A DNA stretch of 64,000 nucleotides from Euglena gracilis (Eukaryota): NCBI GenBank assembly GCA_039621445.1, contig CP154954.1, forward strand, positions 37,185,703 through 37,249,702. The letters run 5' to 3'. The notes beneath the pieces were generated by a model that was not told where the DNA came from, made no database searches, and saw only the letters and a program-made list of their open reading frames with translations. Position 1 is the stretch's first letter. Every line of letters starts with the position of its first letter. The translations under genes were made by a program, and so were the position numbers. Positions 4,505 through 58,440 of this stretch are shown one piece after another.

Positions 4505-4932
4505 AGTGTACGTCCAAAGCTTTCCCTTTTCCCATTTTTGGGACTTTCTGTAAAAGCCTTTCGCTTTCGCCTTGGTGCGCAGCCTACATATGGTAGGGAA
4601 AAGTCTTTGGAGTAACGAAAAGTGGTTTTCCCCTTTTCTTCCCAATTCTCCAAGAAGCAAAGCACAAAGCAAAGATTCAGAAGTTTCTTCTGAGATCAAG
4701 TTCGATTGTTCTGAGGGTTTTTCCCTCTGACAAAACCAATGGTCAATCTTTGGAAGAATGACAGTGAAGAATACCGCCTGTGGTGGAAGGAGAGAAAAGT
4801 GCTGACGTGTCCAGGGGCAGATCCCAGAAGGGTCTGCCACGATCCTACCAGCTGTGGTTTTCCACAGTGGTGCGACCGTCACAGAACCCTCTCTGCAGAT
4901 ATCCTACAGAGCTGGGACGTGCCTGGTACACA
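4505..4932 (-). repeat. 3' LTR of copy 1 (428 bp, TGTGTAC...GTACACT on -)
   Basis: Reverse complement of 15741-16168 and 32057-32484. Adjacent to the PPT. Confidence 0.95.
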
Positions 4933-4942
4933 TCCCCCTCCC
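4933..4942 (-). promoter_or_regulatory. Polypurine tract of copy 1
   Basis: GGGAGGGGGA on - immediately before the 3' LTR, identical to 32047-32056. Confidence 0.85.
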
Positions 4943-8800: not shown

Positions 8801-8827
8801 GCCTGGCTCCCTTCCACCGGGCAGCAT
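5823..8827 (-). pseudogene. Extra ORF3 of copy 1 (internally deleted, frameshifted), including the 8-Cys finger at 6572-6793
   Basis: ORF pieces 8537-8827, 6523-8559, 6233-6859 and 5823-6269 align to copy 2 ORF3. Lacks ~2.4 kb (copy 2 about 26022-28425). Confidence 0.85.
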
Positions 8828-8990
8828 GATACAGCCCGGGGTCGGTACGGTGGGATGTTGGGGTTGTTGTTTGTAAGGTGTGTAAGGGTAACCGCTTGAG
8901 TATTATTTGCTAAAAAGTCTGCGGAAAGAAAGAATGATAAGAATTAATGATAAAAAGGAAGAGAAAACAACATGGGTTTCCCATGAGTTC

Positions 8991-11900: not shown

Positions 11901-14085
11901 CCACTCGCTTTTCGAGGGTACAATCCACTTACACTGAATAAGCTTCTCATTTCATTGAGAGCTTGTTCGCGTTCTCCCGAACAACGAAAAAAATTACGGT
12001 GCATGGGTTTAGCTCCTTCCTTAAGCTCGATCTTACAAACACCGAACGGACCGCGTATCGCGGGGTCGATGTCGCACGCGTATACTGGATTTTCCAGCAC
12101 ACCGTGAAATTCGCGGGTGATCCGCGAACAGTATTCGTCTGACTTAGGATGCTGACCTGCACTCTCGATGACTGCGGAAACCACCAGGGTATCCCTGGGG
12201 CTACCGAGCTTCCTCGGCACCGCTAATTCGGACATTCCGAATGCATCGAAGAAACATACGCGAAAAATGATTTCTTGCAAGGGTGGTAATATTTTACCAC
12301 AAAAATCTTCAAAAATTGGTACATTTGTGGGTAAATCCCACCAATGAAAACATACATACGATAGTTGGGTGAACCATTCCGCTTCCGGAATGCTGGGTAT
12401 GAGAATAACTCCACGGGCTTCATCCCGCAGAATTTTCCCAACCGCACATTCGATAAGTTTTGGGGGAGGGTGCATCCATAACACTGTATCACCCCAAAAT
12501 TTATCAAATGCGTTGGAGTGTTGTGACCAATGACGTGGCAAACGGGCATGTGCATTGGATGAAAAGGCATCGGTTTCCAATGCCAAATCAAAAGAATCAG
12601 CCAATGTCCCGATTTTGGAAAACCATCGTTCCAAAATACGATATTGACCAAAATTGAAAGCATTCCATACGCGTTTCACGTATTCATGCTCCCTATTTCC
12701 GGGTTGGAGTGAAGAAACACAATGAATGGATCCCCAAACATGCGGGTTGTCTTCCACTACCTCAAGGGATAATCCCAAGGGAGTTTGGACAGGTTGGGGG
12801 TTTCCCCATTCCGCATCAAATTCATTCCAAGTGTACTCGGGATGGTGATTTGGCATAACGCTTTTCACGTTTCCGAACAACGAGGTTAATCCGCGTTGTT
12901 GGAGTACTCGGTGTATCTCCGCGCATTGCGGGCTACAACCAAGTGTATCATGGCCTGTGGTTTCCGTATTCCGAATAGTGATTAGTGTCAGATTTTCAAC
13001 TAAACATCCACAATCGAAATCCGATTGGGTGGAAATTCTCCTGCAGTGCACACATTGGAAGGAAGTGTGATGGTGTGACGGGTGTGTGTGTAAATGGGTG
13101 TCGGTGGCATTAGCCGGTGAGTCTTGTACAGGTGTGCCTGGATTCGGCACAACTGGTGGGAAACGGAGTGGTGGTGTAGCTGGGCGACTACTCGACAACG
13201 TACGTACTGCAGGCCTTTGGGCTTTCGTCTTGTAACCCAGTGAAACGGCGGGGGTACCGTTACTCGCTTGCCCTGCCTCATGTGGAACGCATGTTGGTGT
13301 GTCATTGGGCAGGAGGGAGGCTTTCTCCGTACCCCGGTTGTGGAAAACGGTTGTTGGTGTGGTGGATAACGGTGTTGCCATTGTAGGTAACGGTCTTGGA
13401 AAAGTGGTGATCATCATGGCGGATGCAAACGGTGATGGTGGTTTGGGTGTCAATGAAGTGGTGGGTGCTGTGCACAAACCGTGGGAGTGGCAATCCACAA
13501 CCAATCAGTACTGGCGTAAAAATGGGTATCCCAAAATTACGTCAGACCCGTGAATTCCGGACTCGTAACCCCAAATATTGGTGAAATGTTGTAATTGTGG
13601 GGGTTGTGAGTGATGCTTCGGAATGATGGGCAAGAGCATCTCGAGCACACATCCCAAATCACCACCACACATGGGGGTGTTATCCGCTGTTGTAATTTTG
13701 ATCGGTTTCTTGGCGCTTACCAAGAGCGGGGTCGGTATCAACCCCAACCGAAAGAGCAGTGCAATGCGCCAACCAGTGTCAAATCAAATTTTAACTTTAG
13801 TGGAGAAATTTTGAATGCGGATTTCCGCTTGGACAAGTAATTCCATTGGTGGTACGCAAAGTGAAGGATCTGGCGGAAATACGTTTGCATGCCAGCTCTC
13901 CCATGAACCCTTTCCAACTTTGCTCAGCATTCCGAGCGGAAATGTGGTGTGGGGGGGTAGGGGACCCGAAATAATTCCGCGTACTGACCGTGAAGGCGGA
14001 TGGGCAGGGGGGGTTAAGGTTGATGAGGTCTTACCTCCATCTGTTCATCAGCCCAGAGGTCCGTGCCCTCGGACCTCGGGCTCCC
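8991..14085 (-). pseudogene. pol: pol of copy 1 (PR-MTase-like-RT-RNH-IN-chromo), several frameshifts and stops
   Basis: Motifs include LDYRYLN, LPMGVKNGP, YIDD, EVDSSDYAVG, KTDHESL, HNHGH...CQIC, GNGRAEAAV and VRWRGYEPEEDTWEP. Confidence 0.93.
12242..12646 (-). other. Dam/DIRS-MT-like N6-adenine methyltransferase domain inside pol, in one open frame in copy 1
   Basis: ETDAFSSNAHARLPRHWS..NAFDKFWGDTVLWMHPPPKLIECAVGKILRDEARGVILIPSIPEAEWF matches the DIRS-MT/phage-Dam pattern DxFAS..N..LP.(F/Y).S...DAF..W....(N/F)PP..LI..VL.KI.....ILI.P.W....W. Confidence 0.75.
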
Positions 14086-15740
14086 CTACTCCAAGTCCGA
14101 ACCGGCCGCATAGCCGGCAACATACTTTTTGGTGGAATAGATGGAATTTAATGAGCGCACCGCCATTCGGGCCTCATTAAATTCTCCCTCCGAGGTCTTA
14201 TCCCCCTCCCTGCCCGAAGCCGGGGTGTCCTCCTCCAAACAAGATATCTTGAAACCGACCTTTTGCCGGTTGGAGGAGTAACCACGGTCCTCGCGGCGCT
14301 TACCGCGATTTCCGTAGCCGGACCAAGGGGAACGAGATCTGGGACATTTGGATGAGTGGTGGTCTTTGGAACCGCAAAGTGAACAACGGGATTTGTGGCA
14401 GGAATCCGTGTAACAGGGGGAACGGTATTCCGTTTTTCCGTCAAACCGTCGTGGTGAACGAGTTTCCCCTCGAACATGACCGGTGTACCGGGGGTTCCCC
14501 GGTGACTCCCGCGAAGAGGATGATCCACTTCGCGAACGAGATCGTGAAGAGTCGCGATTGAAATCCTGTTTTCGGGTAGGGGGTCCAGGTGACCGACCGC
14601 GAGAGGGACGGGTTTCCCGACCATCACGCGATGGTGACTTGGGCCTACTACCGCTAAAGCGGTTCTCCGAAGAACGTGAAACTCCCGATTGACGTGAAAA
14701 CGCCGAGGAACCCGATCCCCGTGAGGAGGTCGAGCCACTTGGGCTTCCAATACGCTTTCGCGCATCGGGATTCGGGCATTCCCGAGGCATGTGACCAGAT
14801 TTGTTGCACAAAAAGCACAGTTTATCCGTGCCTTGGTCCGAAGAACGCTGATTCCGCGTTTTCGGTCCCGTGGTGGGTGATCTTGGTGATATGGGTGATT
14901 TTTGCAACGCGTTAACCGCACCCGCAGGGATTCCCGCGGTGGGATGCGTTTGGAAAGCGGACTGTATTTGTCCCAAAACTTGTGTGAGTTTGAGTTGCTT
15001 TGACACATAATTCCAACGTTGGGCAAGAGTCATCTCATGCCCTGCCAACTCCTCGCGATGGATATCCTTCACGAGGGATGGTGTGAAATGCAACAAAACC
15101 GCATCGAATTGTTCGCGCATTTGCTTCTCGCTAAGTTCATCAACTTCGGAAGCAAGTGCTAACCATTTGGCATACCAAAGGTCAATGGTTTTCCATTTGC
15201 GATCCGATGGCGCGCATTGTCGCCATTTCTTTTCCAGGGTAATCCTGGTGACCAAGCTTGAGTTGGTTGAAGCGTATTGCTCAACCAGGTCATCAAATGA
15301 TACGCCATTACGTATTACCAAATTGCGCGCGCGTTCTCGCTCCTCCCTCGGTAGGCAATCCATGAATTCCATCTTGACCACCTCGGGATTCGGGTCTTGG
15401 GTGGGTCCCTTTAGTGCCCAGTAGTACTCCCAATCCCGAAAAAATTGTCTCCATGTGGACGGATCCCCGTCCCATTGGGGTTTCACCTTGTTCGCTATGG
15501 TGATGGTGCCCCTGAAGTCTCTCTGAGTAACCCGCTGACCCTCGGTGGTATTCCAGGGGTTTGGGTCAGGGTAATTCTTCACACCAAACGCGTTTCGCGG
15601 ATTTTCCGCTCCATGTGTACCCCGTGCAGGATTTCCCGCACCAAGTGTAGGGGTGGCAGGATTTTCCTGCGGGAATTGCGAAAAATGTGGTGAAATTCTC
15701 CCGGTGGGGCAGGTTCCCCGCCGAAAACCCGATGGGTGAT
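14086..15740 (-). pseudogene. gag: 3' part of gag, copy 1 (interrupted at 15740 by the LTR of copy 2)
   Basis: CFLCNKSGHMPREC and CSLCGSKDHHSSKC zinc knuckles, an RS-rich spacer, ending DLE-TAG. Confidence 0.9.
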
Positions 15741-16168
15741 TGTGTACCAGGCACGTCCCAGCTCTGTAGGATATCTGCAGAGTGGGTTCTGTGACGGTCG
15801 CACCACTGTGGAACACCACAGCTGGTAGGATCGTGGCAGACCCTTCTGGGATCTGCCCCTGGACACGTCAGCACTTTTCTCTCCTTCCCCCACAGGTGGT
15901 ATTCTTCACTGTCAATCTTCCCAAGTTTGACCATTGGTTTTGTCAGAGGGAAAAACCCTCGGAACAGTCGAACTTGACCTCAGAAGAAACTTCTGAGTCT
16001 TTGCTTTGTGCTTTGCTTCTTGGGGAATTGAGAAGAAAAGGGGAAAACCACTTTTCGTTACTCCAAAGACTTTTCCCTACCATAGGTAGGCTGCGCACCA
16101 AGGCGAAAGCGAAAGACTTTTACAGAAAGTCCCAAAAAGAGGAAAAGGGAAAGTTTTGGACGTACACT
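15741..16168 (+). repeat. 5' LTR of copy 2
   Basis: TGTGTACCAGG...GGACGTACACT, a direct repeat of 32057-32484, followed by the PBS. Confidence 0.95.
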
Positions 16169-16178
16169 TGGTAGCAGA
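16169..16178 (+). promoter_or_regulatory. Primer binding site, tRNA-iMet type
   Basis: TGGTAGCAGA directly after the LTR, complementary to the ...UCUGCUACCA 3' end found in many eukaryotic initiator tRNAs. Confidence 0.75.
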
Positions 16179-16422
16179 TTTAGGCAACGATCCTACACAG
16201 ACGTTCCACACAGAGAAACTCTGTGGTTGACTGGTGGTGAGGATCGTACTGAGCCGTGAAACACGGTGAAAGTATTGTTCCTGGCCCCTAGCCAACCCTT
16301 AAACAAGGATACAGGTCTCAGAAGGTTCTGTTCGGTATTCGCCGATACAACCTTTCTGGTCCCTGTTTCACTGCTTATTTGTGTGAATTTTTGAGTTTTT
16401 GCCTTTTTACCCATCTCAAAAG

Positions 16423-19400
16423 ATGCAGAGCACAACCCCCAACAGCAAATTTGATTATGACTTGTTGATGAGTTCATTGACCAATCTTGATGAAGATTGC
16501 GGGGATTGGAACGGTTCGAATGAAACAAGTTCCAATTCCCGACTCCCCAAGCAACAAGAAGACACATTGCATCAATTGTCATTGTCACAAGGCGAAACGC
16601 CTTCATTGTTGCAAGGGGGTAATGAACCCTCTTCATCATCATTGTCATTGATTGTGCGGGATGTGGGCGGCAAAATGCCTACCTCCATCCCGGTTCACCC
16701 GTCATTGATTCGGCGAGGGGATGAACCCCTTGCACCGTTACACTTGGCAACTCATGTAACCCATGAACAAAGTGAGGGGTATTTGCCCTTTGCTCTGTTC
16801 ACACCCAAAAGATCCCCGGTGGAAGCACCGGTGGGCCTTTTGGAGTGCAACTCGGTGGAAACACCGTGTTTTTTCCAACCCCCCCCCCTCAATTTCCACC
16901 CCCCACACCATTCCAGGGATTACCCGCGGAAACTGCGGTTTTCCCTGCTTTGCCATGGAACCCAGATATGCGTCTGGTGGTACCGGAAAACTCTGGTGCC
17001 GTTTCCATTGTGGATGACTATGAGGAAGATTTGAGGGATAACCTCAGCCCCGGTGATGTTTACCATATTCTCGGTCAACTCCCAGCGGATCACCCGCTGA
17101 ACAAGCAAATTTTGCATGTCCACCAATGTGTTGGGGAATGTGCAACCATGCTCAACAAGGTTTTGCAGTTTGATGAGGACAATCAAAGGGTTGTCAACAC
17201 CAAGCTGGAATATTGCTGGAATTATTTGCAGGAAATCGGCAAATATTGCCAACACAATTTTGAAAATGCGGGGAAAGACCTTCAGCATTTTCGAGAAAGT
17301 GTTGACAGTATTTTGCGCATCCAACTTCCACAAAATTTCCAACAAATCAGCGAAATGCTGCATGAAGCGGAAACGCGGAATGATTCCAAGTTTCTGCATG
17401 TGCAGGATGGTATGAGCCATCTTTTTGCCAAAGTAGAATCATGTTCAACCATGCTACTGCAATTGCAGCAGCAGTTACAAGCGCAAAATGCCACTCCCAA
17501 AATGCCGGAAATCGGTAACTTTGTTGCGGTTGAGCATTTTGCCACACTCACTACTTCTTTCCAAGAAGCCCAACAACGGATTTTGCATCTCTGCTCGGAA
17601 ATCGAGCATTTGAAGCAATTTCAAGCGACGGTGCAAGAAAATTTTGTTCCCAGTACGCAAATCCAGGTTTTGGAGGAACGCATCCTACATTTGGAGCAAA
17701 AATCCTGCCATTGTGCCGCAAATCAGGATGGATTAACCACCCTGCACGCAAAAATCGCGCATTGCGCACAACGGTTGTATTTCGCGCAACAACAATCGCA
17801 AACGGACATCGGCGGTATTAATGCCACCGTTGTCGGTTTGCAGGAGCATGTTTCTGCACTTTCCAAGCGAATTCCTGACATTAGTGGTATTCAAGCCGCT
17901 ATTGGGGAATTACAAACCCGTTGCACCTTGTTGTCTACCACGGTAGCAGAAATTCGCGCACTTCCCAATACTTCGCGTGCGCGGATATCGGAGTCACCGG
18001 AATTTCGCTCATTTTATAACAAAATGCTTGGTGACAACAAGGAAACCTCGCAAGCATTTTGTACGAGTTTGATTCAACTTGAGGAATCTGTGAATCGGAA
18101 TGCCGGATCAATGCAAGATGAGGTTTCACGGTTGGATGGACGAATTTCTGCGGTGTTGGAAAAGCCAACCGCGGAAAATTCGCGCACCACCGCGGAAACC
18201 CCCACCAAGGCACCCCACCAATTGTAAATTGTCTCAAATGCAGTAAAAGCGCTTGCGGGTCAACTCCGGAATGTGGAGGAGTCCCAAGGACAACTTGTCC
18301 AAGATTTACACTTGGTTTCTGAAAAGTTACCACACTTGGACGATTTTTCCCGTTACCGCAAACGCATTCGGCATTTGGAGACTGAGGTTGACCGTATTTG
18401 CGGCCAACTCCAGTTGGTGGAACATTTGGAAGAAACGGTGCATGACTTGTCCGCGAGTTTGGATAAAATGTCCGCTCCGGTACCGGTTGTGCCACCACCC
18501 ACCGCGGTAAGCGCTGCGGTTGGTATTCCAAATGTCCCGGAATCGCGTTCTCAAACTACCATTTCCGGGGTGGGAATACCTACATCCACCGCGAATTTGG
18601 TACAACCACCCGCGAAAACGCGAATTGTACCACCTTTGCTGTTGCCAACACCGCAAACCCACTTTTCACGGGAAATTTCCGATGAGGAAATTGATCCCCC
18701 GCTCGAGAATTCGAGTCTCCACCAGGAAATTCAACATTCCAACCTTGTACGAGGAATGAGCCAACACCCCGCACCTGGTATTGGTCATGTGTCGCATTCG
18801 CGATCATACCAACCACCATCGGGTTCTGGATTACCAGATCACCCATCGGGTTTTCGGCGGGAAACCCGCCCTACTGGGAGAAAATCACCACATTTTTCGC
18901 AATTCCCGCAGGAAAATCCTGCCACCCTTACACTTGGTGCGGGAAATCCTGCACGGGGTTTATATGAAGCGGAAAATCCGCGAAACGCGTTTGGCGTTAA
19001 GAATTACCCGGACCCAAACCCCTGGAATACCACCGAGGGTCAACGGGTTACTCAGAGAGACTTCAAGGGCACCATCGGAATCGCGAACAAGGTGAAACCC
19101 CAATGGGACGGGGATCCAACCACATGGAGACAATTTTTTCGGGACTGGGAGTACTATTGGGCACTAAAGGTACCAACCCAAGACCCGAATCCCGAGGTAG
19201 TCAAGATGGAATTCATCGATTGCCTACCGAGGGAGGAGCGAGAACGCGCACGCAATTTGGTGATACGCAATGGCGTATCATTCGATGACCTGGTTGAGCA
19301 ATACGCTTCAACCAACTCAAGTTTGGTCACCAGGATTACCCTGGAGAAGAAATGGCGACAATCCGCGCCATCGGATCGCAAATGGAAATACATTGACCTT

Positions 19401-20478
19401 TGGTATGCTAAATGGTTAGCACTTGCTTCCGATGTTGATGAACTTAGCGAGAAGCAAATGCGCGAACAATTCGATGCGGTTTTGTTGCATTTCACACCAT
19501 CCCTATCGTGAGGAGTTGGCAGGGCATGAGATGACTCTTGCCCAACGTTGTAATTGTGTGTCAAAGCAACTCAAACTCACACAAGTTTTGGGACAAATAC
19601 AGTCCGCTTTCCAAACGCATCCCACCACGGGAATCCGTGCGGGTGCGGTTAATGCGTTGTAAAAATCACCCATGTCACCGAGATCACCCACCAATGGACC
19701 GAAAACGCGGAATCAGCGTTCTTCGGACCAAGGCACGGATAAACTGTGCTTTTTGTGCAACAAATCTGGTCACATGTCTCGGGAATGCCCGAATCCCGAT
19801 GCGCGAAAGCGTATTGGAAGCCCAAGGGGCTCGACCTCCTCACGGGGATCGGGTTCCTTGGCGTTTTCGCGACAATCGGGAGTTTCACATTCTTCGGAGA
19901 ACCGCTTTAGCGGTAGTAGGCCCAAGTCACCATCGCGTGATGGTCGGGAAACCCGTCCTTCTCGCGGTCGGTCACCTGGACCCCCTACCCGAAAACAGGA
20001 TTTCAATCGCGATTCTTCACGATCTCGTTCGCGAAGTGGTTCATCCTCTTCACGCGAGTCATCGGGGAAGTCCCGATCCACCGGTCATGGTCGACGGGAA
20101 ACCCGTTCACCACGACGGTTTGACGGTCGAACGGAATACCGTTCCCCCCGTTATGCGGAATCCCGCCACAAATCCCGTTGTTCACTTTGCGGTTCAAAAG
20201 ACCACCACTCATCCAAATGCCCCAGATCTCGTTCCCCCCGGCCCGGCTACTGGAATCGCTGTAAGCGCCGCGATGACCGTGGTTACTCCTCCAACCGGCA
20301 AAAGGTCGGTTTCAAGATTTCTTGTTTGGAGGAGGACACCCCGGCTTTGGGCAGGGAGGGGGATGAGACCTCGGACAGGGAATTTAATGAGGCCCGAATG
20401 GCGGTGCGCTCATTGAATTCCATCTATTCCACCAAAAAGTCCGTTGCCGGCTATGCGGCCGGTTCGGACTTGGAGTAG
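16423..20478 (+). pseudogene. gag: gag of copy 2 with a long N-terminal coiled-coil-like extension (~1350 codons when joined; frameshifts and stops)
   Basis: ORF pieces 16399-17034, 16845-18227, 18273-19511 and 19672-20478. Capsid-like PQWDGDPTTWRQFFRDWE segment and two CCHC knuckles. Confidence 0.85.
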
Positions 20479-20514
20479 GGGAGCCCGAGGTCCGAGGGCA
20501 CGGACCTCTGGGCT
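20476..20514 (+). promoter_or_regulatory. Putative gag-pol stop-codon readthrough signal (TAG + hairpin)
   Basis: TAG-GGG-AGCCCGAGGTCCG-AGGGCA-CGGACCTCTGGGCT. Pol continues in the gag frame. Identical in copy 1 (14050-14088). Confidence 0.7.
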
Positions 20515-23500
20515 GATGAACAGATGGAGGTAAGACCTGATCAACCTTACCCCCCCTGCCCATCCGCCTTCACGGTCAGTACCCGGAATTATTTCGGGTC
20601 CCCTACCCCCCACTCCACATTTCCGCTCGGAATGCTGAGCAAAGTAGGAAAGGGTTCATGGGAAAGCTGGCATGCAAACGTATTTCCGCCAGACCCTTCA
20701 CTTTGCGTACCACCAATGGAATTACTCGTCCAAGCGGAAATCCGCATCCAAAATTTCTCCACTAAAGTTAAAATTCTCATTGACACTGGTTGTCGCATTG
20801 CACTGCTTTTTCGGTTGGGGTTGATACCGACCCCGCTCTTGGTAAGCGCCAAGAAACCGATCAAAATTACAACCGCGGATAACACCCCCATGTGCGGTGG
20901 TGATTTGGGATGTGTGCTCGAGATACTCTTGCCTATCATTCCGAAGCATCACTCACACCCCCCACAATTACAACATTTCACCAAGTTTTTTGGTTACGAG
21001 TCCGGAATTCACGGGTCTGACGTAATTTTGGGATACCCATTTTTACGCCAGTACCGATTGGTTGTGGATTGCCACTCCCACGGTTTGCGCACAACACCCA
21101 CGACCGCATTGCCACCCAAACCACCATCACCGTTGGCGTCAACCATGACGACCACCACTTTTTCAACACCGTTACCTACAATGGCAACACCGTTATCCAC
21201 CACACGAACCACCGTTTTCCACACCCGGGGTACGGAGAAAGCCTCCCCCCTACCCAATGACACACCTACATGCGTTCCACATGAAGTAGGGCAAGCGAGT
21301 AGCGGTACCCCCGCCGTTTCACTGGGTTACAAGACGAAAGCCCAAAGGCCTGAAGTAATTACGGTGTCGAGTAGTCGCCCAGCTACACCACCACTCCGTT
21401 TCCCACCAGTTGTGCCGAATTCAGGCACACCTGTACAAGACTCACCGGCTACTGCCATCGACACCCTCTTATACGCACACCCGATACACCAACACACTTC
21501 CTACCAATGTGTGCACTGCAGGAGAAATTCCACCCAATCGGATTTCGATTGTGGGTGTTTAGTTCAAAATCCGACACTGATCGCAATTCTGATTACGGAA
21601 TCCACACGGCATGACACACTTAGTTGTAGCCCGCAATGCGCGGAGATACACCGAGTACTCCAACAACGCGGATTAACCTAGTTGTTCGGATACGCGAAAA
21701 GCGTTATGCCTAATCACCATCCCGAGTACACTTGGTATGAATTTGATGCGGAATGGGGAAACCCCCAACCTGTCCAAACTCCCTGGGGATTACCCCTTGA
21801 GGTAGTGGAAGACAACCCGCATGTTTGTGGATCCGTTCATTGTGTATCTTCACTCCAACCCGGAAATAGGGTGCATGAATACGCGAAACGCGTATGGAAT
21901 GCTTTCAATTTTGGTCAATATCACATTTTGGATCGATGGTTTTCCAAAATTGCGACATTGGCTGATTCTTTTGATTTGACATTGGAAATCGATGCCTTTT
22001 CATCCAATGCACATGCCCGTTTGCCACGTCATTCGTCACAACACTCCAACGCATTTGATAAATTTTGGGGTGATACGGTGTTATGGATGCACCCTCCCCC
22101 CAAACTTATCGGATCCCCCCAAAACTTGTCAAATGTGCGGTAGAGAAAATTCTGCGGGATGAAGCCCGTGGAGTTATTCTCATACCCATCATTCCGGAAG
22201 CGGAATGGTTCACCCAACTATCATATGTGTGTTTTCATTGGTGGGATTTACCCACAAATGTACCGATTTTTGAGGATTTTTGAGGTAAAATATTACCACC
22301 CTTGAAAGAAATCATTTTTCGCGTATGTTTCTTCGATGCGTTCGGAATGTCCGAATTCGCGGTGCCGAGGAAGCTCGGTAGCCCCAGGGATACCCTGGTG
22401 GTTTCCGCAGTCATCGAGAGTGCAGGTCAGCATCCTAAGTCAGCCGAATTCTGTTCGCGGATCACCCGCGAATTTCACGGTGTGCTGGAAAATCCAGTAT
22501 ACGCGTGCGACATCGACCCCGCGATACGCGGTCCGTTCGGTGTTTGTAAGATCGAGCTTAAGGAAGGAGCTAAACCAATGCACCGAAAATTTTTTCGTTG
22601 TTCGGGAGAACGCGAACAAGCTCTCAATGAAATGATTGAGAAGCTTATTCAGCGCAAGTGGATTGTGCCCTCGAAAAGCGAGTGGACATCCCAGGCATTT
22701 GTTGTTCCTAAACCCCCAGACCACTTAGGTAAGAAGAAATGGAGACTGGTGCTGGATTACCGGTACCTGAACTCCCAAACAAGGGATGATCCCTTCCCGC
22801 TCCCCCTGATCGAGGATTTGATCACCAAACAATCGGAAAACCGGTTGTGGTCAATTTTCGATCTGGAGGACGGTTTTCACCAAATGCACTTGCACCCTGA
22901 CTCCCAACCATACACGGCATTCGTGACATCCAAGGGTGTGTACCAATGGACGGTACTCCCCATGGGTGTTAAGAATGGCCCAGCCATGTTTCAGCGCATG
23001 ATACAATGGGTTCTACGCGATTTACCGTTTGCCATTGTGTACATTGATGATGTGCTGGTGGGAACACCACCACCATCCGCAAAATCGAGCGAGGATATCC
23101 TCGTCACACACTTCCACCATGTTTGCGCGGTATTAACCGCTTTTCAAAAACATGTGCTTTTCGCGAAAGGCGCGAAAATGCATTTGTTTCGGATACTTAT
23201 AAAATTTTGCGGTCACATCCTCAGCAATGGACAGCGGAAAGCCGCTCCGAGTAAACTCGAAGCCATTAAGAAATGGACCCCTGAGGTAATCAAAACGATT
23301 ACTCACCTCAAAGGATTTTTGGGATTAGCCCAATATTACGAGATTTATAAGAAAGACTTCGCGAAAATCGCGGTGCCCCTCACCAAACAGCTCAAAAACC
23401 GGGCTGTTGACAACACCAAAGTCATTTGGGATGACCAAATGCGCGAAGCCCTTGAGAAAATCAAGGTTTTGCTTTTGGAGAATGTTGTCCTCGAAATCGC

Positions 23501-25595
23501 GGACCCATACAAACCATACGTACTGGAAGTCGACAGCAGCGATTACGCTGTTGGCGGAGTTCTTAGCCAGCATAACGCGGCGAATGAGCTCCGACCTGTG
23601 GCTTTCTTCAGCAGAAAGTTACAGGGCGACGACGGAAAAGGTCAAGTCAAGTGGAGTATACGCGAGAAGGAAACCTACGCAATCGTGCTTATACTCCAGA
23701 AATTCCGAAGCTGGGTAGCCAGCAGCCTCGTCCAGATCCTCGTCAAGACCGATCATGAGAGTCTCCAACACTGGTACACCGAGGATTTGAACAAGGCCAT
23801 GTCATCGGTCGGAAGGCGATGCAGATGGCATGAGTTCTTGAGTCAATTCAACCTTGTGGTTATTTATACCCCTGGTCACACACAAAAAGTAGCGGATCCG
23901 CTCAGTCGGGCCCCTTGGTATTACCCTGGGAACCCGGATGAGGGAGACGCGACTTTTCATGGAAGTCAGGAAGCTGACGAATACGCACGTCGAAACGACG
24001 CTGCGGATAATCTTTTGGATTCTTTTCCCGTTTCACAACTATTCCTGGTCGCACCAGTGCGCGGAAGGCGCCGACGTGGAAGCACGTCCGGACCCCGGCG
24101 TATTACGCGCACGGAGTCCCCTTCCCCACTGTTCTTTCGCGAATGGGATTATAGTCGTGATCCGGTGTATGACACCATTGTCACCAGACTTCGTAATGGC
24201 GAAGTGCTGGACAATTACACTCTTTCACCTTTACGGTTGGTTTTTCGCAATGAATCGGGTTACAAATATTGTATCCCCCAGGACCTGGTTGATGATGTGA
24301 TTTTATGCTATCACAACCACGGTCACCCTGGGGCCCCCAAACTTCTTTCGTTGGTGGGCCGCAGGTATTGCACAACCCTGAGCGAGAAAGAACTTTACTC
24401 ACGCTGTTTGCGAATAGCGCAACGGTGTCAAATTTGTCAAGCGGTAAAACCCCGCAGAGGTACCCCCCTGGTACGATGGACTTTTTCCCCGTACCCCATG
24501 ACATTTTTACCTCCCTCTGCGTGGATTTTCCGGAATTAGAACCGTGCAAAGGACGGACGACAAAATTTACGATTACGTTTTTGTTGTTGTCTGCAGGCTG
24601 AGTGGGTACATTGTAGCCATTCCATGCCAGAAGTCAGGGTTGACTGCCCAAAGTTTGGCAACTATATTTTTGGAGAAATGCATTTGCTTAATGGGTTTAC
24701 CGAATGAAATCGTGAGTGATCAAGACCATTTGATTTCTTCAAGGTTTTTCACCACTTTGTGCGGTTTACTCGGAATTGAGCAACATTTTTCCATTATATA
24801 CCGACCCAAAGGCAATGGTAGAGCCGAGGCAGCCGTGAAATCCGTCGTGAATATGCTTCGCCTTTCACTGGCTGACTCGCGCAGCAACTGGATATCAGTT
24901 CTACCATGGTCTTTGTTTTATATCAATACCCTACCAGGGTTGGTTTTACCTCACTCCCCCTATAAATTAGTTTTCGGACGGGACCCTCCGGCCATAGGGG
25001 ATGTCCCTTCGGAGAGACCCGCGCGAACGAGTGTCAGTTGCGAGACCTGGTTTGCGGAAGTAGAAAATCTACGTTCTGCAGTCCAGAAGCGCGTGACTGA
25101 TATTCATGCAACCAAACGGAAATCGTTTTTGCAGAATTTCAAGTCACCTGTGTATAGTCCCGGTGACCGCGTGTGGGTGCGGAATAGCCGTACTCGCATG
25201 CAGTCTTCCAAGCTGGACCCCTTTGGCTCGGCCCCTGTGAAATCCTAGAAAGACTAGGTACCAGCGGGCGTTACAAGGTTGCATTACCGAATGGTGTTGA
25301 GGACGTTCATATGGACGACTTCAAACCATACCTGTCGCCACCGGATGGGAAACCCATCCCGTGTTTGCACTTCAAACCCCGTTCCAGATTACCTGAGACG
25401 GATGATTTTGTAGTCGATAAAATTATCGATCACAAAATCGACAAAGGTATGCACCTTTGGAAGGTCCGCTGGAAAGGGTATGGGCCCGAGGAGGACACTT
25501 GGGAGCCAGCAACCAGTTTTGTTGGGTATGTCCAGCAAGATTGGAAGCTGTGGAACAAGAAGCATAACATTGATGTTTCCATGACAAGTTTTTGA
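20479..25595 (+). pseudogene. pol: pol of copy 2: aspartic protease, MTase-like domain, RT, RNase H, integrase, chromodomain
   Basis: ILIDTGC (protease), YIDD, RNase H acidic motifs, HHCC, IVSDQD...RAE, and chromodomain FVVDKIIDHK...WKVRWKGYGPEEDTWEP. Stops at 21679 and 22281, plus frameshifts. Confidence 0.95.
21916..22340 (+). other. Dam/DIRS-MT-like domain in copy 2 pol (broken by a short tandem duplication near 22095-22130 and a stop at 22281)
   Basis: EIDAFSSNAHARLPRH...NAFDKFWGDTVLWMHPPPKLI / KILRDEARGVILIPIIPEAEWF...FRVCFFDA. Confidence 0.72.
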
Positions 25596-25756
25596 GAACG
25601 CATGGGAAACCCATGTTGTTTTCTCTTCTTTTTATCATTGATTCTTATCATTCTTTCTTTCCGCAGACTTTTTAGCAAATAATACTCAAGCGGTTACCCT
25701 TACCAACAAACAACCAACCATCTACACAACTAACCAAGCTGACCCCGGGCGGTAAT

Positions 25757-28700
25757 ATGCTGCCCGGCGGAAGGGAACCAGGCAGAGGACCGCCTTACCA
25801 CCCAACTCACCCACAGCCGGCCCAATATGCGTACCGATACGGTACACAGCCACCTGCACGGACTGCGGCTCAGGGAAACCCTGAAGCCAGCAGCAGTAGC
25901 AGGATGACCCAGATGCCCGCGGAAGCGCGGCCATCTCAGCCATCAGGCTCTCGTCGCCTCCCACCGTACGCGGGTGTGATGATCCACCGCACGGCGGAGA
26001 CGATTAACCGGGTTATGCGTATGAGCGCAAACCCGGCACCGGACCACCTACACTGTGGGATGACCACTGCCGTAAAATTTTGACCATCGCGAATACCCCT
26101 CCGGCCCTGTGGTGTATGTGCGCCCAGGCGACGATGACCGGTCTGGTGTATTACACCGACCCGGACGCGTCGGGATTCGCGGCGGACATTACCATGCGTG
26201 ACCTGGGCGTGGAAGTCCCGCCACAGGTAGCACGGCAGGTACCACCAGTCGCAACTTACACTTGACATTTTCGTGCTCACTCCCCCGGATTACCCGAGGA
26301 AGAGACAGTGGAAGCACCTGTCCGGAGTGAACACCCACGTGTGAAAGAAAGTATTTTTCGATCCCCTGAGCGCATGCCCCGGCGGGATTATCCTGCGCAG
26401 GAGCCTGTGTCTCAGTACACCGTCTCCGGGGATTACCCCCAGGAGGCGCCAATGCCACGGGATCAGTACGTGTATCCACCTCAACCCCACCCAACCATAC
26501 CTGACCCTATCCCACGACGTCCTGCGGAGGGAAACCCTCCCCCGACGTCTGACTCTGCCCGAAGCGCTCGTCCGCGGGAAGCCGCGGCAGCGCCTCGTGC
26601 GGCACCAGTTCCCCCGGTACGGGATGAACCCGTTAACCCGTGGACTGGCCGGCCGTTCGAGACTGAGGAGGAGCGTCAACAGTATGAATATGCTGTGACA
26701 ATCCAACGACAAATAGCACGTCGTCCCCCTGTTTCCGCTGGCCAGGGATACCCTGCCCGGGGGGAAATGACACGGGAAGAGCGCCAGCAGTATGATGCTG
26801 CTGTGTCGGCTCTCACAGGAGTCCCAGCTCCATCACGATCAAGTCAACCAGCGCGACAGCAGGACATTGCTGTGGCGGAAGCGCCATCAGCACGACCCAC
26901 CAGCTCTGCCGCCGGCAAGCGTGACCGCGGCCCGGAAAATCTGACGCCGCAGCCACAGCGCTGTTCGCCGAGGTCGGAAAATCCGCCCGCGGCGATGCAC
27001 GTCGACGCTGAGGAGGAAGCTCAGCCAGCGCCAGACGTGACGGCAGAACGGGCACGTCGGGAAACCCGACCATCCCCCGTCGCACCGGTTTACTCGAATC
27101 GTGGTGACGCTGAGCAGGAATTTGCTCGAACGCCAAGCACGGAATCCGTGACTTACCCTGTGTTTACACCGGAAGACCCAGAATACTGGGATTACTGGGC
27201 GACATTCGAATGGCTGTCTACACAAAGGGTAAGGGGAAAGGTAAAGGCAAGGGTAAGGGGAAAGGAAAAGGCCAGGAGAAAGGTGGGAAAGCCCCACCTG
27301 GCAAAGGCGGAAAAGCCGCTTGGCCAACTCCAGGCAAAGGCGGAAAATCTGCCGGACCCCCAGCAGGCAAGGGCGGAAAAGCCGCCGAACCTTCGAAAAC
27401 GAAGGACGATGACGTTACTGTAGTATTCACCTACCTGCAGGAGATCTGGCCGAAAATCGACGAAGATCTCCGGCAGTTTACACACGCAAGCAACGTGATC
27501 CACCGACCACCGGATGCGGTGCTCGAAGTGGTGCAGAATCGTATGTACGATCACTGCAAACGTTTTTTCTACAGTTCCGAACTTTATGCGTTTGAGGGAT
27601 ACCCTCATTCGGATGAAGTTGTCCTGGACCGGATGTCCGGTTTCTGGGAGCTGTGGTTCTGGTTGGGATACCCCTGCCAGAACTTCGGCATCTTTACCGA
27701 CCGAAACGGTCATACGTATGCCGACTGTTTGGGAACATGTCCTGACGACGAAACGTTCGTAGCACAGTTGAAGGAAATCTTCAACCACATGTATTCCGTC
27801 GGAGCACTGGGAATCCAGTGGAAATATTACCCCCTGCCGGAGAAACTCCAGGCACAGGCTGCGGTAATGTTCACGCGCAACCTCCAAGTATACTTGGACA
27901 GCATGTATGGCACGCTGTTCAAGGTGCTGGACGTCGACCTCGCGTACCCCCAGCGGTACAAACTGGAATGCCAGTTTTGCAAGGAAGTTCACATTGCTGA
28001 CTTCTGGGGTTTCGGGGAACGCGGAAAACTCCGACTGCCGAGAATGCCGGCAGCCAGCCGACCAGGAGATTCCTCCTGCATCAATGCCGGAATCCCAATA
28101 TCGGAAAAAAAAGGGCTGAAACAGCCGCGGAAGACAAAATTTCAGCTGCAACAGTACTGGCACCGGGCGTGGATTACCTACGTCCTGGAAGTCTACATTT
28201 ATTTCCTGGAACAGATGACCACTGATGTGGATATCCACAGGGGATACACCGAGGTGGACGCCAGGCCTCATGACCCAGAACGACGCAGGATGAACCTGCG
28301 GCCGGAATGGGAGCAGGCAGAAATCGGCCTGCGGGATCACCTGGACACCCAGTTCGGGGATATCCTCGACTGGAAGGAGTTCGAACCTTTCTTCGCAGCA
28401 CGCGAGGTAAGCCACACTCGGTATGCGGTCCCATTGCCCGCTTTCCTGGAAGACACAGGAGAGCAGGGTATGGGATGGAACCTTCGATCGCAGTGGGAAG
28501 ACCTCTGCTTGATCAACGAGGAAGAGCCGCAACCTCCACCCGGAAGCTGGGTGAGAGCGTCGTGGCCGCCCCCATACCCCAACTCTGACAGGAGTGAAAG
28601 TACAAGCTTTTACCGCCTGTCCGACGCACAAGGGTGCTACAGAAGCGGAAAAGACCCGCGTACTGCAGCACAACTCCACACAGAGGACTACCCTCCGGAA

Positions 28701-31187
28701 GCGGAGGAGGAGGAAGAAACGGTCCCCATGGCCGAGGATGAACCTCAGCCAGCGGAACCTCCGGCACGGGAAACCCGTAGCCCATCGGTCGTGATGCTGG
28801 ACACTGTGGCAGAAACTGCCCAGCGCCCAGGATCGTCGACAGGTGAAATGACACCTGTCCCACAGTCACCCACCTCACTGAGTACGACAGGTGTACCGAC
28901 CCCTCCACGGGAAAACCCGCCGGAGACGGTACCCCACACGCCTGAGGTATTACGCCTCAAGCTCCCTGTTTCCGGGGAAACCCCGTCGGCAGAGGAGCCA
29001 GCGGAGGAGCCCACTTCAGGTGAAGAACCTGAACGGCGCACCTCGCTGGGCGGACGCGTACTCGGTGGTTTGCGGTCCCTGATCGCAGTTGTCACTCCAC
29101 GTGGCACTGCGGCCAGTTCTTCCACGGCTGCGGCGGAAGCTGCCCAACCGGCGGAAGACACACATGACATAACAGCCATGGTGGAGGATGAACCTTCCCC
29201 AGCGGCGGCGCCACCACCGGTGTCGGAAGCGACACGGACGGAAGGCGAACAGACAGCAATCGCAGTGGAGACAACAACAACCGTGCCAGTACGGGATGAA
29301 CCTGTATCAGTACCGGTAGCGCCAGCCGAGGCACGGGATGAACCCACACCTCAGCGCATTTCCACCGCCACTGCACCAAAGCATTCAGGCACACGGACAC
29401 CGGCGCCTGAAAAACAGGCTGAGCGGACGTCCATGCCCCCACCACAGGCTCAACCAGCGCGAAGTGCGCCAGCCAAGCCTACACCCACACCATCCCCAAC
29501 GGCTGCCCCTGGGAAACCCACGGAAGCCGCAAGGGAACGCGTAGGACGACCCTCAGCTCGGGAAACCCCTGCTGAAGGTCAACGACGCTCGGTGTCGGGG
29601 GGAAGACCCCCGTCCCAAGCGTCACCACGCACCTGGGCAAGCAAGCGCGACGCCGACCGGCGGCCCTCGGATGCTCCGGAAACCGAAAGTCCAAAGGCCC
29701 CGGCAAAATCAAAGCCGGGCGCCGCACCTTGTATGCACGTACCGAAATGTGGTGATCAGCCCCCACCGAAAGGCGGTGGTGGTGCTGGCGGCCAGAGTGC
29801 TGCATCCTCCTCTCGGGGATTAACCTCGGGACAAGGATTCACGCACGTCACATCATCCGGCGATGGGAAAACCTCACAGCCGAAACCTGCGTTAAAGGGG
29901 CATGGAAAATCCCGCGCCTCAACAGCCGAGACACCTTCGGAAGACGAAGTTATCATCGACTGGAACGCGGTCAATCAGGATGATCCTGAGATTCATGACC
30001 TGAAAAACAGGTACATGATGATCGACCACAAACTGAGGACACAGCAATGCCTCAACCGGTGGATTGAGCCACTGTTCTGTCAGGGCCGAAAATGGTCCTT
30101 TGATCAGAACGTGACCTGGAATTATTACAATTCCAGATCCCCCCGTGTTTTGGCCCAATACTTCGGTGAGGAATTCCTCATCGACAAAACAACGGAAAAC
30201 CGTTTTGTGTGGCTTTGCACTGTATGCCACAAGATGTATAACAGTGCACCTGACCTGGGATTACCCCTCGTCCATGTGTGCAATCCTGTGAATCGGAAAT
30301 CGTTCCACAAGGATGTATACATCCCCAACTGTGCCGCCTTGGTATGCGCCAAGTGCGTGGACAGTTGGACCCACAAGCACAATTTTAGCTACACCGAGCG
30401 AGACGGTACGAATGTACCGATACTCTGCGTCAACTGCCTTCGAGGTACCTTCTGGCAAACTGCGGAAGGCGCAGTTCGCACAATCGTGCCAAGTGCCCAG
30501 AAGCCACTGGAGGAATACTCCACCTTGCACAAAAAGTACAAGGATTTTTTCAAGTACTCCAACCTCAAGCTTGACGACTACCGCCACACGGGAATGGCCC
30601 GTGGGTGGCAGATCGACAGTGGGGCGATACGCCTCGCTGCTGAGGCAGCAGGGGTAAGATTACCTTACCTCTGGGAGACAGCGGACAGGGAAAAGATATT
30701 TTTCCGCCTGTTCACAACCCAGGACCGAAACGGTCGCTGGTGCCTGCCACAATGGCCACCCGAAGACCACGGGATGACCTGGAAAGACTGGCTTGGGGCC
30801 GTATTACGACCCCATACAGTCCGCGCGGAATGTGCGTATCACATGCCGATTGACTTCCACCCGGGGAATGCCCCGCAGGTGTCAGCCAATCACCCACGGA
30901 TGAATCACTTCATCTGGCCAGCCACTCTGCCCAGGAAATTCTGGGAGAAGCTGCAATGGTTCCTCGCGGAAAGAGCGAGTGCAACCAAGCACACAGTCCC
31001 CGAAGGATAGGTTCGGTATTGGTTGGTACCTGATTTCGAATACGAATCGCCAGAAACCTGGCTTGTAGATAGGCCACCACCACCACAATTCCAGATGGTC
31101 CTTGTGGAAGATCCCTTGGACTCCCGCCATGATTATTGGCGGCTGGAACGGATGTAATGCCGAAACGGCATTACCGGGCTCATGTAA
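25757..31187 (+). pseudogene. Extra ORF3 (sense, after pol; ~1800 codons when joined), unknown function, with GK repeats, Pro/Ala-rich linkers and an 8-Cys finger at 30216-30437
   Basis: ORF pieces 25757-26083, 26080-26265, 26308-27423 and 27210-31010, continuing to TAA at 31185-31187. Copy 1 reads through the copy 2 stops (TGG for TAG, CAA for TAA). Confidence 0.85.
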
Positions 31188-32046
31188 GGTAAATGCCTTC
31201 ATGGAGCCTGAACATCCATATACTATATATATATATACACTGATAGCGGAAATCGCTAAACAGCCCTGGGATGACCCTGGGTCTGTGACACACAATCTGC
31301 GCTCTGGATGGAAGCATCCGTGAGCCCCCCCCCCCGCCGCCACCAATGGCCATGCGGACGGAAAACTGTCTGCAAGAGGTAATCGCCTCTTATTGCGTCG
31401 TGAAGGAGCTACTGCTGTGAAGACCTTGGCAGCCGGGAAACCTGGCAAGCCGCTAAGTGACACACAGCACACAGCGCGCACGCCGTAATAATAGGCCAAC
31501 TTGTCACTTTTCGGCCCTAAGGCCCCTTAAGGCTGCCAGACAGCAAAAATTCTGTTCTGGCCTAAGCCAGCCCCCCTCTCCTCCCTACTTTCCCCCCACC
31601 CCCGCAAAGCTGTCGCCGGCAGTCGGTTTTGTAAGTAGGCTTTTGTTTCCTAGTGCGGATATGACCGCCTAGGAGCCCTATCCGGGTATGACCAGGATAG
31701 GAGCCTGCCCCCCCCCCTTCCACACCTCTCCCCTCGGGTTTTCAGCGAATACGCTTGACCAACCCCGCGTGCCTTTGGCACACCCAAAGTGGGTGGATGG
31801 GACACTTTGACAGGAAACCTGCCAGCCCCGTTTCCCACAGTGGGCTTTTTCGCACCCCTAAGCCGAAACGGCTAATAGGTAACCGCGATAAGCGGTAACC
31901 TTTTGCGCGTTTTCGGGTTTTTGGGTTGCGCCCCTGTGGAGAAAAGAGATCCGTGTTCTGGAAAGCAGAACCCAATCAGGACTGTGTCTGAAATCTGGAC
32001 GGGACCTGGGATGACCTGGTCCAAGAAGGAAATCGGGCGTAGCCCT

Positions 32047-32056
32047 GGGAGGGGGA
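32047..32056 (+). promoter_or_regulatory. Polypurine tract of copy 2
   Basis: GGGAGGGGGA abutting the 3' LTR. Confidence 0.85.
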
Positions 32057-32484
32057 TGTGTACCAGGCACGTCCCAGCTCTGTAGGATATCTGCAGAGTG
32101 GGTTCTGTGACGGTCGCACCACGGTGGAAACCCACAGCTGGTAAGATCGTGGCAGACCCTTCTGGGATTTGCCCCTGGACACGTCAGCACTTTTCTCGCT
32201 TTCCCCCACAGGTGGTATTCTTTACTGTCATCAATTCCAAGTTTCACCATTGGTTTTGTCAGAGGGAAAAACCCTCGGAACAATCGAGATTGAACTCAGA
32301 AGAAACTTCTGAGACATTGCTTTGTGCTTTGCTTCTTGGGGAATTGGGAAGAAAAGGGGAAAACCACTTTTCGTTACTCCAAAGACTTTTCCCAACCATA
32401 AGTAGGCTGCGCACCAAGGCGAAAGCGAAAGGCTTTTACAGAAAGTTCCAAAAAGGGGAAAAGGGAAAACTTTGGACGTACACT
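32057..32484 (+). repeat. 3' LTR of copy 2
   Basis: 428 bp. About 28 mismatches to the 5' LTR by manual alignment. Confidence 0.95.

Positions 32485-34494: not shown

Positions 34495-58440
<23,946 letters not shown>

Follow-up and report, generated by a model that had tools for sequence, protein, structure and literature searches.

The window considered here is a stretch of 64,000 nt from Euglena gracilis (GenBank assembly GCA_039621445.1, contig CP154954.1, positions 37,185,703 to 37,249,702 of the forward strand), and all coordinates given below are counted from its first nucleotide. Two copies of one long terminal repeat (LTR) retrotransposon lie head-to-head within it, copy B on the plus strand (15741–32484, 16.7 kb) and copy A on the minus strand (4505–15740). 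Between its paired LTRs copy B encodes reverse transcriptase (RT), RNase H and integrase as well as a C-terminal chromodomain, and it is thus a Ty3/gypsy chromovirus. Its pol gene ends with an open reading frame (ORF) for the chromodomain (25188–25595, plus strand, stop codon at 25593–25595; Pfam Chromo, E = 3.2e-11). After a spacer of 161 nt, and ahead of the 3' LTR that begins at 32057, follows a further sense-oriented coding region of ~5.4 kb, which extends from an ATG at 25757 to a stop codon at 31185–31187. This region, referred to as ORF3, is the subject of the present analysis, and we consider it fairly probable that it represents a conserved accessory gene of the element family.

Organization of ORF3 in the two copies

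ORF3 had been described in a first-pass annotation, made from the sequence of the window, as a sense ORF of ~1,800 codons that follows the chromodomain and is present in both copies. The coding-like sense sequence between 25757 and 31187 is indeed there, but it does not form one open frame in either copy; likewise, parts of it are shared by the two copies, but copy A lacks the equivalent of positions 26023–28434 of B (2412 nt, with 6 nt in their place in the blastn alignment). In copy B the 5' segment (25757–26080), rich in Pro, Ala and Arg, is read in frame 2, which covers 25676–26080; the segment is open in both B and A, and its ATG is common to both. The middle segment (26008–27420; Pro/Ala/Arg/Glu-rich, and found in B only from 26023 on) is read in frame 1, with a stop codon at 26263–26265 and open stretches of 85 and 385 codons. 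The remainder is read in frame 0, where 1298 codons (27114–31007) are uninterrupted by a stop. Premature stops are located at 31008 and 31152 of B. Both correspond to sense codons in A, just as the annotation had reported for stops of one copy, and the final stop is common to both copies. The C-terminal tail of ORF3 (31008–31187) is accordingly recovered from the translations of B and A, and two homologous proteins, P0012 and P0015, continue past the stop at 31008 and align to this tail. The individual differences between the copies quoted in the annotation were also found to be exact: the codons CCA TTG CCC GCT TTC CTG GAA GAC of B (28431–28454) correspond to CCG CTG CCT GCT TTC CTT GAA GAG in A, and the peptide INEEEPQ of B to IDDDEPQ of A.

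GC content is periodic with codon position in all parts of ORF3 but 25757–26262; in the middle segment the values for the three positions are 0.71, 0.56 and 0.54. An antisense open frame of 557 codons (27192–28865, minus strand) overlies the first globular block described below. It has no Pfam match and no homologue on that strand, and is most likely a by-product of the codon composition of the sense strand.

ORF3 of copy A occupies positions 5826–8827 of the minus strand, from the ATG at 8827–8825 through the deletion junction at 8559/8552 and on through the linker and the C block (see below) to a stop at ~5826. The junction lies between GGTTATGCG and GGTATGCG, at a short microhomology, which is the pattern expected of a deletion in A by template switching or slippage. 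Since contigs from other runs cover parts of 26023–28434, the difference is better explained by loss in A than by gain in B. Owing to this deletion, B alone contains the KG repeat as well as the greater part of the first globular block. The C block of A carries further deletions of 16 nt and 1 nt, at the B-equivalent positions 30114 and 30753. Neither element in the window is still alive. Contigs from four of four RNA-like runs cover bins of ORF3 at 90–99% likeness. The runs were compared as assembled Logan contigs, and gaps in the cover (X16, X17) and the lower depth over 27830–29950 were not counted as evidence.

Purifying selection on ORF3

In order to assess selection, copies A and B were compared by the Nei-Gojobori method in all three frames, the two off frames serving as a control for composition and transition bias. 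Across 28435–31007 (848 codons), the ratio of non-synonymous to synonymous substitutions (dN/dS) is 0.47 in the frame of ORF3 (dS 0.101, dN 0.047) and 0.96 and 1.35 in the off frames. The 95% confidence interval (CI) of the in-frame value, obtained by bootstrapping codons, is 0.33–0.66, and none of 2000 resamples reaches 1. When the region is divided, the linker (500 codons) yields a dN/dS of 0.52 (CI 0.36–0.76; off frames 0.90 and 1.20) and the C block (347 codons) one of 0.42 (CI 0.15–1.40; off frames 1.48 and 5.63), the latter estimate being based on 18 substitutions because the copies are 98% identical there. The same test applied to the other genes of the element gave 0.25 for gag, 0.44 for the nucleocapsid, 0.63 for the protease, 0.20 for RT-RNase H, 0.45 for the integrase and 0.12 for the chromodomain, values with which that of ORF3 is comparable, and the three frames of the 3' untranslated region (UTR) gave 1.13, 1.10 and 0.55.

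The distribution of stops and indels follows the same trend. Neither copy has an in-frame stop within 28435–31007, and the 2.73 kb of shared ORF3 contain three indel events (one of them of 6 nt and in frame) versus 12 in the 0.86 kb of the 3' UTR, so that indels are roughly tenfold rarer in ORF3. A single 6-nt indel is found in the 1504 nt of the linker. Identity between A and B is itself a mosaic, amounting to 91% in the linker, 94% in gag and 97–98% in RT and the C block, which suggests recombination between element lineages.

ORF3 was kept by purifying selection during the divergence of the A and B lineages. The annotation had supposed such selection, set beforehand against a dN/dS value near 1, and the estimate of 0.47 (0.33–0.66) agrees with it. 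ORF3 is also more than a product of chance, given its open frame of 1298 codons, its homologues elsewhere and an in-frame dN/dS well under that of the off-frame controls.

Homologues of ORF3

Residues 100–1298 of the long frame were used as a query against a database of 1.84 billion representative proteins. Twenty matches had E ≤ 0.001; E was ≤ 1e-10 for 12 of these and ≤ 1e-30 for three. They cover both globular blocks (N and C) of the predicted protein as well as the linker. The best match, P0002, is a Euglena gracilis transcript (EukProt) with 43% identity. Close fragments (P0003, P0004, P0006, P0007, P0008, P0011 and P0013; 51–72% identity) extend over the linker and the last part of the N block, and P0018 also belongs to the close relatives of the linker, which are 52–74% identical to it. 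More distant matches cover either the N block only (P0019 and P0020, 27–29% identity) or the C block only (P0002, P0005, P0009, P0010, P0012 and P0014–P0017, 27–43% identity). When placed on the window, the homologues fall solely on the plus strand, in frame 0 for B, and in the frame of ORF3 in both copies. Thus, judging from these alignments, each of the two predicted folded blocks is distantly related to proteins of other organisms.

The Lys-Gly (KG) runs that characterize ORF3 recur in the homologues at different places, being located ahead of the N block in P0020 and directly ahead of the C block in P0014. Because the runs precede different blocks, the parts are evidently used as modules. 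By profile-profile comparison, the N block is not related to the C block.

Other searches returned nothing further. No ORF3-like stretch is present in any of 192 relatives of the pol protein. A word-based homologue search with the C block alone produced no match, and one with alignment A1 recovered its own member P0016 only, the candidates having probably been swamped by low-complexity words. Scans of JGI metagenome contigs with alignment A4 and with the whole protein P0001 yielded no confirmed relative.

Composition and folds of the predicted protein

The KG repeat, which the annotation had noticed, is located at 27225–27391 (plus strand) and comprises KG repeated ~12 times, followed by three PGKGGKAA-like units; Tandem Repeats Finder reported periods of 24, 18 and 33. 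It is followed by the globular N block (27411–28592, plus strand), with a C-x2-C knuckle, the sequence DFWGxGERG and homologues in P0019, P0020, P0007, P0011 and P0021. Conserved motifs of this block are RPP, W..F.LGY, GI.W and YPQRY...C..C.....DFWG.GERG. A coding linker rich in Pro, Ala, Glu and Thr (28593–29945, plus strand) is supported by its dN/dS and by its relatives P0003, P0004, P0006, P0008, P0013 and P0018. The globular C block (29946–31007, plus strand) is supported by homologues and dN/dS and has a conserved C-terminal motif, NHPRxNxxIWPAxLP. The division into globular blocks separated by linkers, proposed in the annotation, therefore holds: two blocks that are not of low complexity (~27411–28592 and 29946–31187), with Pro/Ala/Glu/Thr-rich sequence between them, are covered by homologues.

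About half of the ORF3 protein is rich in Pro, Ala, Glu, Thr and Arg and is probably disordered. The motifs VRDEP and EDEPxPA recur in both the frame-1 segment and the frame-0 linker, which supports the view that the frame-1 and frame-0 parts once belonged to one protein.

Kyte-Doolittle profiles in 19-residue windows revealed no hydrophobic or transmembrane segment in any of the five ORF3 pieces, the best mean being 1.08. The absence of a membrane anchor claimed in the annotation is therefore upheld by a hydropathy scan, no dedicated signal-peptide predictor having been applied, and its description of ORF3 as not env-like fits both this result and the lack of a Pfam match of any kind. Pfam searches with the ORF3 parts, and with relaxed thresholds on all members of the alignments, gave no match and nothing consistent, and the PDB sequence profiles of both blocks gave nothing under E = 0.08. 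Models produced by AlphaFold2 from shallow alignments had a mean predicted local distance difference test (pLDDT) score of 47.2 for the C block (10 rows) and 45.0 for the N block (6 rows). With these poor models as queries, VIA-align comparison to ~48,000 chains gave best Z scores of 3.3 and 3.6 and none of 5 or above; since the models are poor, the fold searches exclude nothing. The best ESM Atlas match of the N block (0.80, to DUF6076) is at the level of chance.

A Cys/His cluster in the C block

Within the C block, positions 30216–30437 (plus strand) encode a Cys/His cluster of the form C-x2-C-x15-H-x-C-x16-C-x4-C-x2-C-x23-C-x2-C, a putative two-zinc finger of RING/ZZ-like type. Its eight ligands, arranged in four pairs, are invariant in all of the five to seven homologues that cover each motif. 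The cluster is probably a two-zinc finger.

Assignment to a particular family is less firm. The best Pfam match of the cluster is zf-C3HC4_4, at 15.3 bits versus a cut-off of 30 (E = 0.022), followed by zf-RING_5 (E = 0.12). A PDB sequence search with the Cys-rich piece alone returned the RINGs of RNF141 and CBL (E = 0.24–0.53) and the zinc fingers of PRDM9 (E = 0.006). Among the 50 rows listed from the structure search were four for ZZ domains and one for a RING (Z = 2.0–2.3), and ESM Atlas connected the C block with RING-type clusters at 0.75–0.78, under the level that counts. The AlphaFold2 model is of low confidence in this part (pLDDT 50–73). These three independent weak leads, from Pfam, from the PDB and from structure and language-model searches, agree and so point to a finger of the RING/ZZ/B-box type, even though every score is under the threshold of these families. 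Like RING domains, the cluster has four Cys/His pairs, and its central C-x4-C-x2-C resembles the RING core C-x-H-x2-C-x2-C; unlike in RING domains, where ligand pairs 2 and 3 are separated by 2–3 residues, the spacing in ORF3 is 16 residues. Membership of the RING family is thus not established.

Separation from pol and possible expression

The annotation had treated ORF3 as an extra sense gene distinct from pol, and relatives of the pol protein bear this out. In the six most similar ones that cover the chromodomain ORF as a whole (41–83% identity), pol ends 0–13 residues past the chromodomain alignment; ORF3 is therefore a separate gene.

The spacer between the two genes harbours a candidate 3' splice or trans-splice acceptor (25616–25666, plus strand), composed of a pyrimidine tract and a CAG. 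Positions 25616–25660 form the most pyrimidine-rich 45-nt window of the plus strand of element B (84%), and the CAG at 25664–25666 is situated 91 nt upstream of the ATG at 25757. Copy A retains the pyrimidine tract, whereas nowhere in the element is conservation lower than in the remainder of the spacer (87% identity). The tract and the CAG resemble a 3' splice acceptor and suggest that ORF3 may be expressed from a spliced RNA. Spliced-leader trans-splicing is known in Euglenozoa, and the acceptor could equally serve it. A pyrimidine tract followed by CAG/GT (TTTTCTC..CCCCCACAGGTGG) is also found in both LTRs of B (15875–15897 and 32188–32210), among the top pyrimidine windows of the element.

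Structure and arrangement of the element

The 5' LTR of copy B (15741–16168, plus strand, 428 nt) begins with TG, as does the 3' LTR (32057–32484, plus strand, 428 nt), to which it is 93.7% identical. A primer-binding-like sequence, TGGTAGCAG, recognized from the sequence, follows the 5' LTR at 16170, and a purine tract, GGGAGGGGGA, lies before the 3' LTR. Pfam domains of B include a zinc knuckle within 19663–20478; RVT_1 (E = 8.4e-25), RNase H (RT_RNaseH, E = 3.1e-23) and the integrase zinc domain (Integrase_H2C2, E = 1.4e-06) within 22284–24539; and the integrase core (rve, E = 1.7e-08) within 24502–25248, followed by the chromodomain already mentioned. Besides the zinc knuckle of gag, the element contains a DTG protease motif. 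The gag region (16776–19511, plus strand) is unusually long, ~900 codons in two frames, and includes a coiled-coil-like part with a weak match to NPV_P10 (E = 5e-4) and no capsid family match. The pol gene of B is broken about as densely as ORF3, with indels relative to copy A or to contigs of other runs at 22096, 24462, 24552 and 25217.

In its domain content, that is, gag zinc knuckle, DTG motif, RT, RNase H, integrase, chromodomain, LTRs, primer-binding site and purine tract, the element resembles other Ty3/gypsy chromoviruses. It differs from them in its length of 16.7 kb, its gag of ~900 codons, a Dam-like insert in pol and the third gene of 5.4 kb.

Copy A lacks its 5' end from the B-equivalent position 18838, and the truncation abuts the 5' LTR of B exactly. 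B did not simply insert into A: its flanks, GTGAT and GGATG, are no target-site duplication, and copy A is not resumed past 32484. The arrangement is therefore the result of a rearrangement rather than of a simple nested insertion. The 5' LTR of B is more similar to the LTR of A (4932–4505; 95.8%) than to the 3' LTR of B itself (93.7%). This likeness of the LTRs, together with the head-to-head junction free of a target-site duplication, suggests recombination between elements.

The lineage of the element and its Dam-like stretch

Searches with the RT-RNase H ORF identified 156 relatives at E ≤ 1e-20. Among the 120 relatives listed, at least ten carry PF05869 (Dam) and at least three carry PF00145 (cytosine methylase); in P0026, P0029, P0023 and P0033 the Dam domain is located just ahead of RT. 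The element in the window has a Dam-like (N6-adenine methyltransferase) stretch of pol at the equivalent place, between protease and RT (21682–22143, plus strand), which scores 17.1 bits versus a cut-off of 28.1 (E = 0.0046). Over 91 residues it shares 40% identity with P0026, the Dam domain of which scores 26.2 bits; the homologous parts of P0029 and P0033 reach 31.7 and 33.3 bits. After the Dam-like stretch copy B shifts frame at ~22098–22140, where it differs from A and from contigs of other runs by a 20-nt indel.

These similarities place the element near the DAM-LTR/EpiLTR group of Euglena described in the preprint 10.64898/2026.05.21.726589. The pol proteins are closely related, a Dam-like stretch stands at the same place before RT, and a chromodomain is present; the general theme of retroelements gathering extra modules is shared as well. 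The methyltransferases of that group are, however, fused into pol, whereas ORF3 lies downstream as a gene of its own and shows no signature of a methyltransferase. In the available portion of the preprint we found no mention of a third downstream gene.

Other features of the window

Positions 1–4629 are occupied by a satellite array with a unit of 211 nt, present in ~21 copies (many of them 99–100% identical), which extends as far as copy A, the LTR of which lies at 4505. Of the 54 ORFs scanned beyond the two copies, the only one with a non-retroelement family is a short fragment similar to an exon of an Alpha-kinase domain (44290–44985, minus strand; Pfam PF02816, E = 7.5e-13); it was considered as a reference for host codon usage and set aside as too short. 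Several direct repeat pairs of 76–89% identity, 13.2–15.3 kb apart, connect 37720–41631 with 53064–54849. The ORFs of these regions are without Pfam domains, and the pairs probably represent another dispersed repeat family. A dense array of 8–12-nt units at 56631–57200 shows at least 45 register shifts and strong GC and AT skew, and gives rise to spurious ORFs of great length on either strand. The window gave no match in Rfam and tRNA scans.

Nature and origin of ORF3

Taken together, the data favour, in our opinion with reasonable though not high confidence, the interpretation that ORF3 is a conserved accessory gene of the element family, non-env and intracellular, composed of several modules, expressed from a spliced RNA, and probably encoding a scaffold that engages the host. 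The ancestral ORF3 would have been one frame of ~1,800 codons, translated from a subgenomic RNA that may have been generated by cis-splicing or by spliced-leader trans-splicing at 25616–25666. Its product would have started with a disordered head rich in Pro, Ala and Arg. The basic repeat of Lys and Gly would have come next, then the N block, of alpha/beta type, a long linker that is acidic and rich in Pro, and finally the C block, with the putative two-zinc, RING/ZZ-like finger and the conserved NHPRxNxxIWP tail. As an intracellular scaffold, the protein might use its basic repeats to bind nucleic acid or chromatin and its zinc finger to recruit or mark a host protein, and might thereby help the replication of the element or its dealings with host silencing. 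This last, functional step is a guess, and a doubtful one. The annotation had suggested an accessory nuclear protein, perhaps for anti-silencing or targeting; for such roles the basic tracts rich in Lys and Gly and in Lys, Ala and Pro, the possible zinc finger and the Dam, cytosine-methylase and chromodomain modules of the lineage, as seen here and in the preprint 10.64898/2026.05.21.726589, are only hints.

A bolder version of the functional step may be formulated, although we judge it unlikely. ORF3 would then be a host-manipulation factor, a large, disordered scaffold whose RING/ZZ-like finger acts as, or recruits, a ubiquitin-type ligase or a reader of histone tails, while the Lys-Gly and Lys/Ala/Pro tracts keep it attached to chromatin or to the nucleic acid of the element. 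Together with the Dam-like domain and the chromodomain it would complete a three-part anti-silencing toolkit, and it would be expressed by spliced-leader trans-splicing from a polycistronic RNA.

Several observations weigh against the accessory-gene interpretation. Neither copy is intact, ORF3 of B having two frame changes and three premature stops, and the single ORF of ~1,800 codons is a mental reconstruction, not something seen directly. The 5' part of ORF3 shows no codon periodicity, and the 266 nt at the 5' end that are common to both copies are weakly constrained (dN/dS 0.66 over 113 codons; off frames 0.85 and 1.13). The N block is single-copy in the window, so that the selection figures apply to the shared parts rather than to this block. 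Recombination between lineages is evident, identity being a mosaic of 91% (linker) and 98% (C block), and the age of the copies is similar to that indicated by the LTR divergence of B (93.7% identity), so part of the divergence between A and B is post-insertional and neutral. Because that part reflects decay, constraint in active elements was probably stronger than the figures indicate. The first third of ORF3 (25757–27420) was compared with Pfam only. No fold or family match of the zinc finger reaches the threshold, and the AlphaFold2 models of the two blocks are of poor quality. No joints at 25666 or at 26022/28435 were found among the contig rows listed, these being contigs, which are unsuited to judging splice joints. 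P0005, P0014, P0016, P0019 and P0020 are ORFs that start with Met and possess one block each, so the one-protein architecture is not universal. Finally, GC content at third codon positions (GC3) is 0.66 in the N block and 0.64 in the C block versus 0.475 in gag and 0.54 in RT, and these higher values are a hint of foreign origin.

The last two points lead to the question of whether ORF3 could be a captured cellular sequence, acquired in a transduction-like manner from one or two host genes and carried as a passenger or kept since an old capture. The deviating GC3, the stand-alone, Met-initiated ORFs among the distant homologues and the absence of an ORF3-like stretch from all 192 pol relatives would be in line with such an origin, and sister pol lineages clearly took up foreign modules (PF05869 and PF00145). 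The stand-alone homologues may, however, themselves be borne by retroelements. Moreover, ORF3 is found in both copies, in contigs of all four runs and in relatives at 50–74% identity, whereas transduced genes are usually present in one or few copies, according to PMC7264820. Purifying selection acted on it between element lineages, and 20 homologues among 1.84 billion representatives is a patchier distribution than expected of a conserved host gene. We therefore hold a captured sequence to be an improbable explanation, while noting that an ancient capture that was subsequently kept is compatible with ORF3 being an accessory gene. The fragmentation of ORF3 could also be taken to mean that the 5.4 kb comprise two or more genes, for example one for a disordered protein starting at 25757 and another starting from the ATG at 27210. 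Copy B does read three frames, the ATG at 27210 opens a stretch of 1,266 codons just ahead of the KG repeat, and the homologues are modular, P0020 starting ~160 residues before its KG run and P0014 having such a run directly before the C block. Since pol of B is similarly broken, though, changes of frame are expected from decay alone. In addition, the frame-1 and frame-0 stretches overlap by 300 nt without a stop, VRDEP and EDEPxPA are present on both sides of the frame change, and the region preceding the KG run of P0020 weakly matches the frame-1 segment (E = 0.03), all of which makes separate genes rather improbable.

The position of ORF3 is that of env and of the env-like additional genes of plant elements described in PMC7264820, and long antisense ORFs such as 27192–28865 show that composition alone can hold frames open. 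Nevertheless, an env-like gene, an independent nested transposon or a non-coding sequence open by chance are, even when considered together, very improbable and are largely refuted by the data. ORF3 lacks any transmembrane or signal-like segment; no Pfam match to env, to a transposase or to a second RT was obtained on either strand; 25400–31600 is not bounded by terminal repeats, since inverted pairs are absent there and the direct repeats are all short and internal; and homologues, codon periodicity and dN/dS all single out the plus strand and frame 0.

Comparison with known systems and significance

At ~1,800 codons, ORF3 is far longer than the usual accessory ORF (aORF) of a retrotransposon. 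In its position and orientation, between pol and the 3' LTR, and perhaps in a multi-copy presence (it is found in both window copies, one with a deletion of 2.4 kb, and in contigs of all four runs), it resembles the sense aORFs (aORF-3S) treated in PMC7264820. The splice acceptor-like site upstream is a further similarity: a spliced subgenomic RNA of the barley element Bagy2 is cited in PMC7264820. ORF3 differs from the sense aORFs and env-like ORFs of plant and insect elements covered there in that it has neither a transmembrane domain nor similarity to env, in that its two conserved blocks match no family in the libraries searched, and in that its host is a protist rather than a plant or an insect. 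Sense accessory ORFs as such are thus known, whereas the size, the lack of any env feature, the two conserved blocks without a match and the occurrence in a Dam-bearing protist lineage of chromoviruses are distinctive. In our search of the literature we came across neither this ORF nor a chromovirus with a RING-bearing third ORF.

Extra genes are rare in LTR retrotransposons, and most are without a known role. ORF3 merits further study because it is very large, is constrained by selection and contains two blocks that belong to no described family, because relatives occur in other microbial eukaryotes, and because the element belongs to a lineage already known for collecting chromatin-related modules (Dam, cytosine methylase and chromodomain). 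If the unlikely host-manipulation version were true, the two blocks would be the founders of two new protein families spread among the retroelements of protists. If the zinc-finger block does act on host proteins or chromatin, ORF3 would provide a testable case of a counter-silencing factor borne by a retrotransposon, and this in a protist whose epigenome is unusual. The two blocks may, whatever their function, serve as markers for such elements in other genomes.

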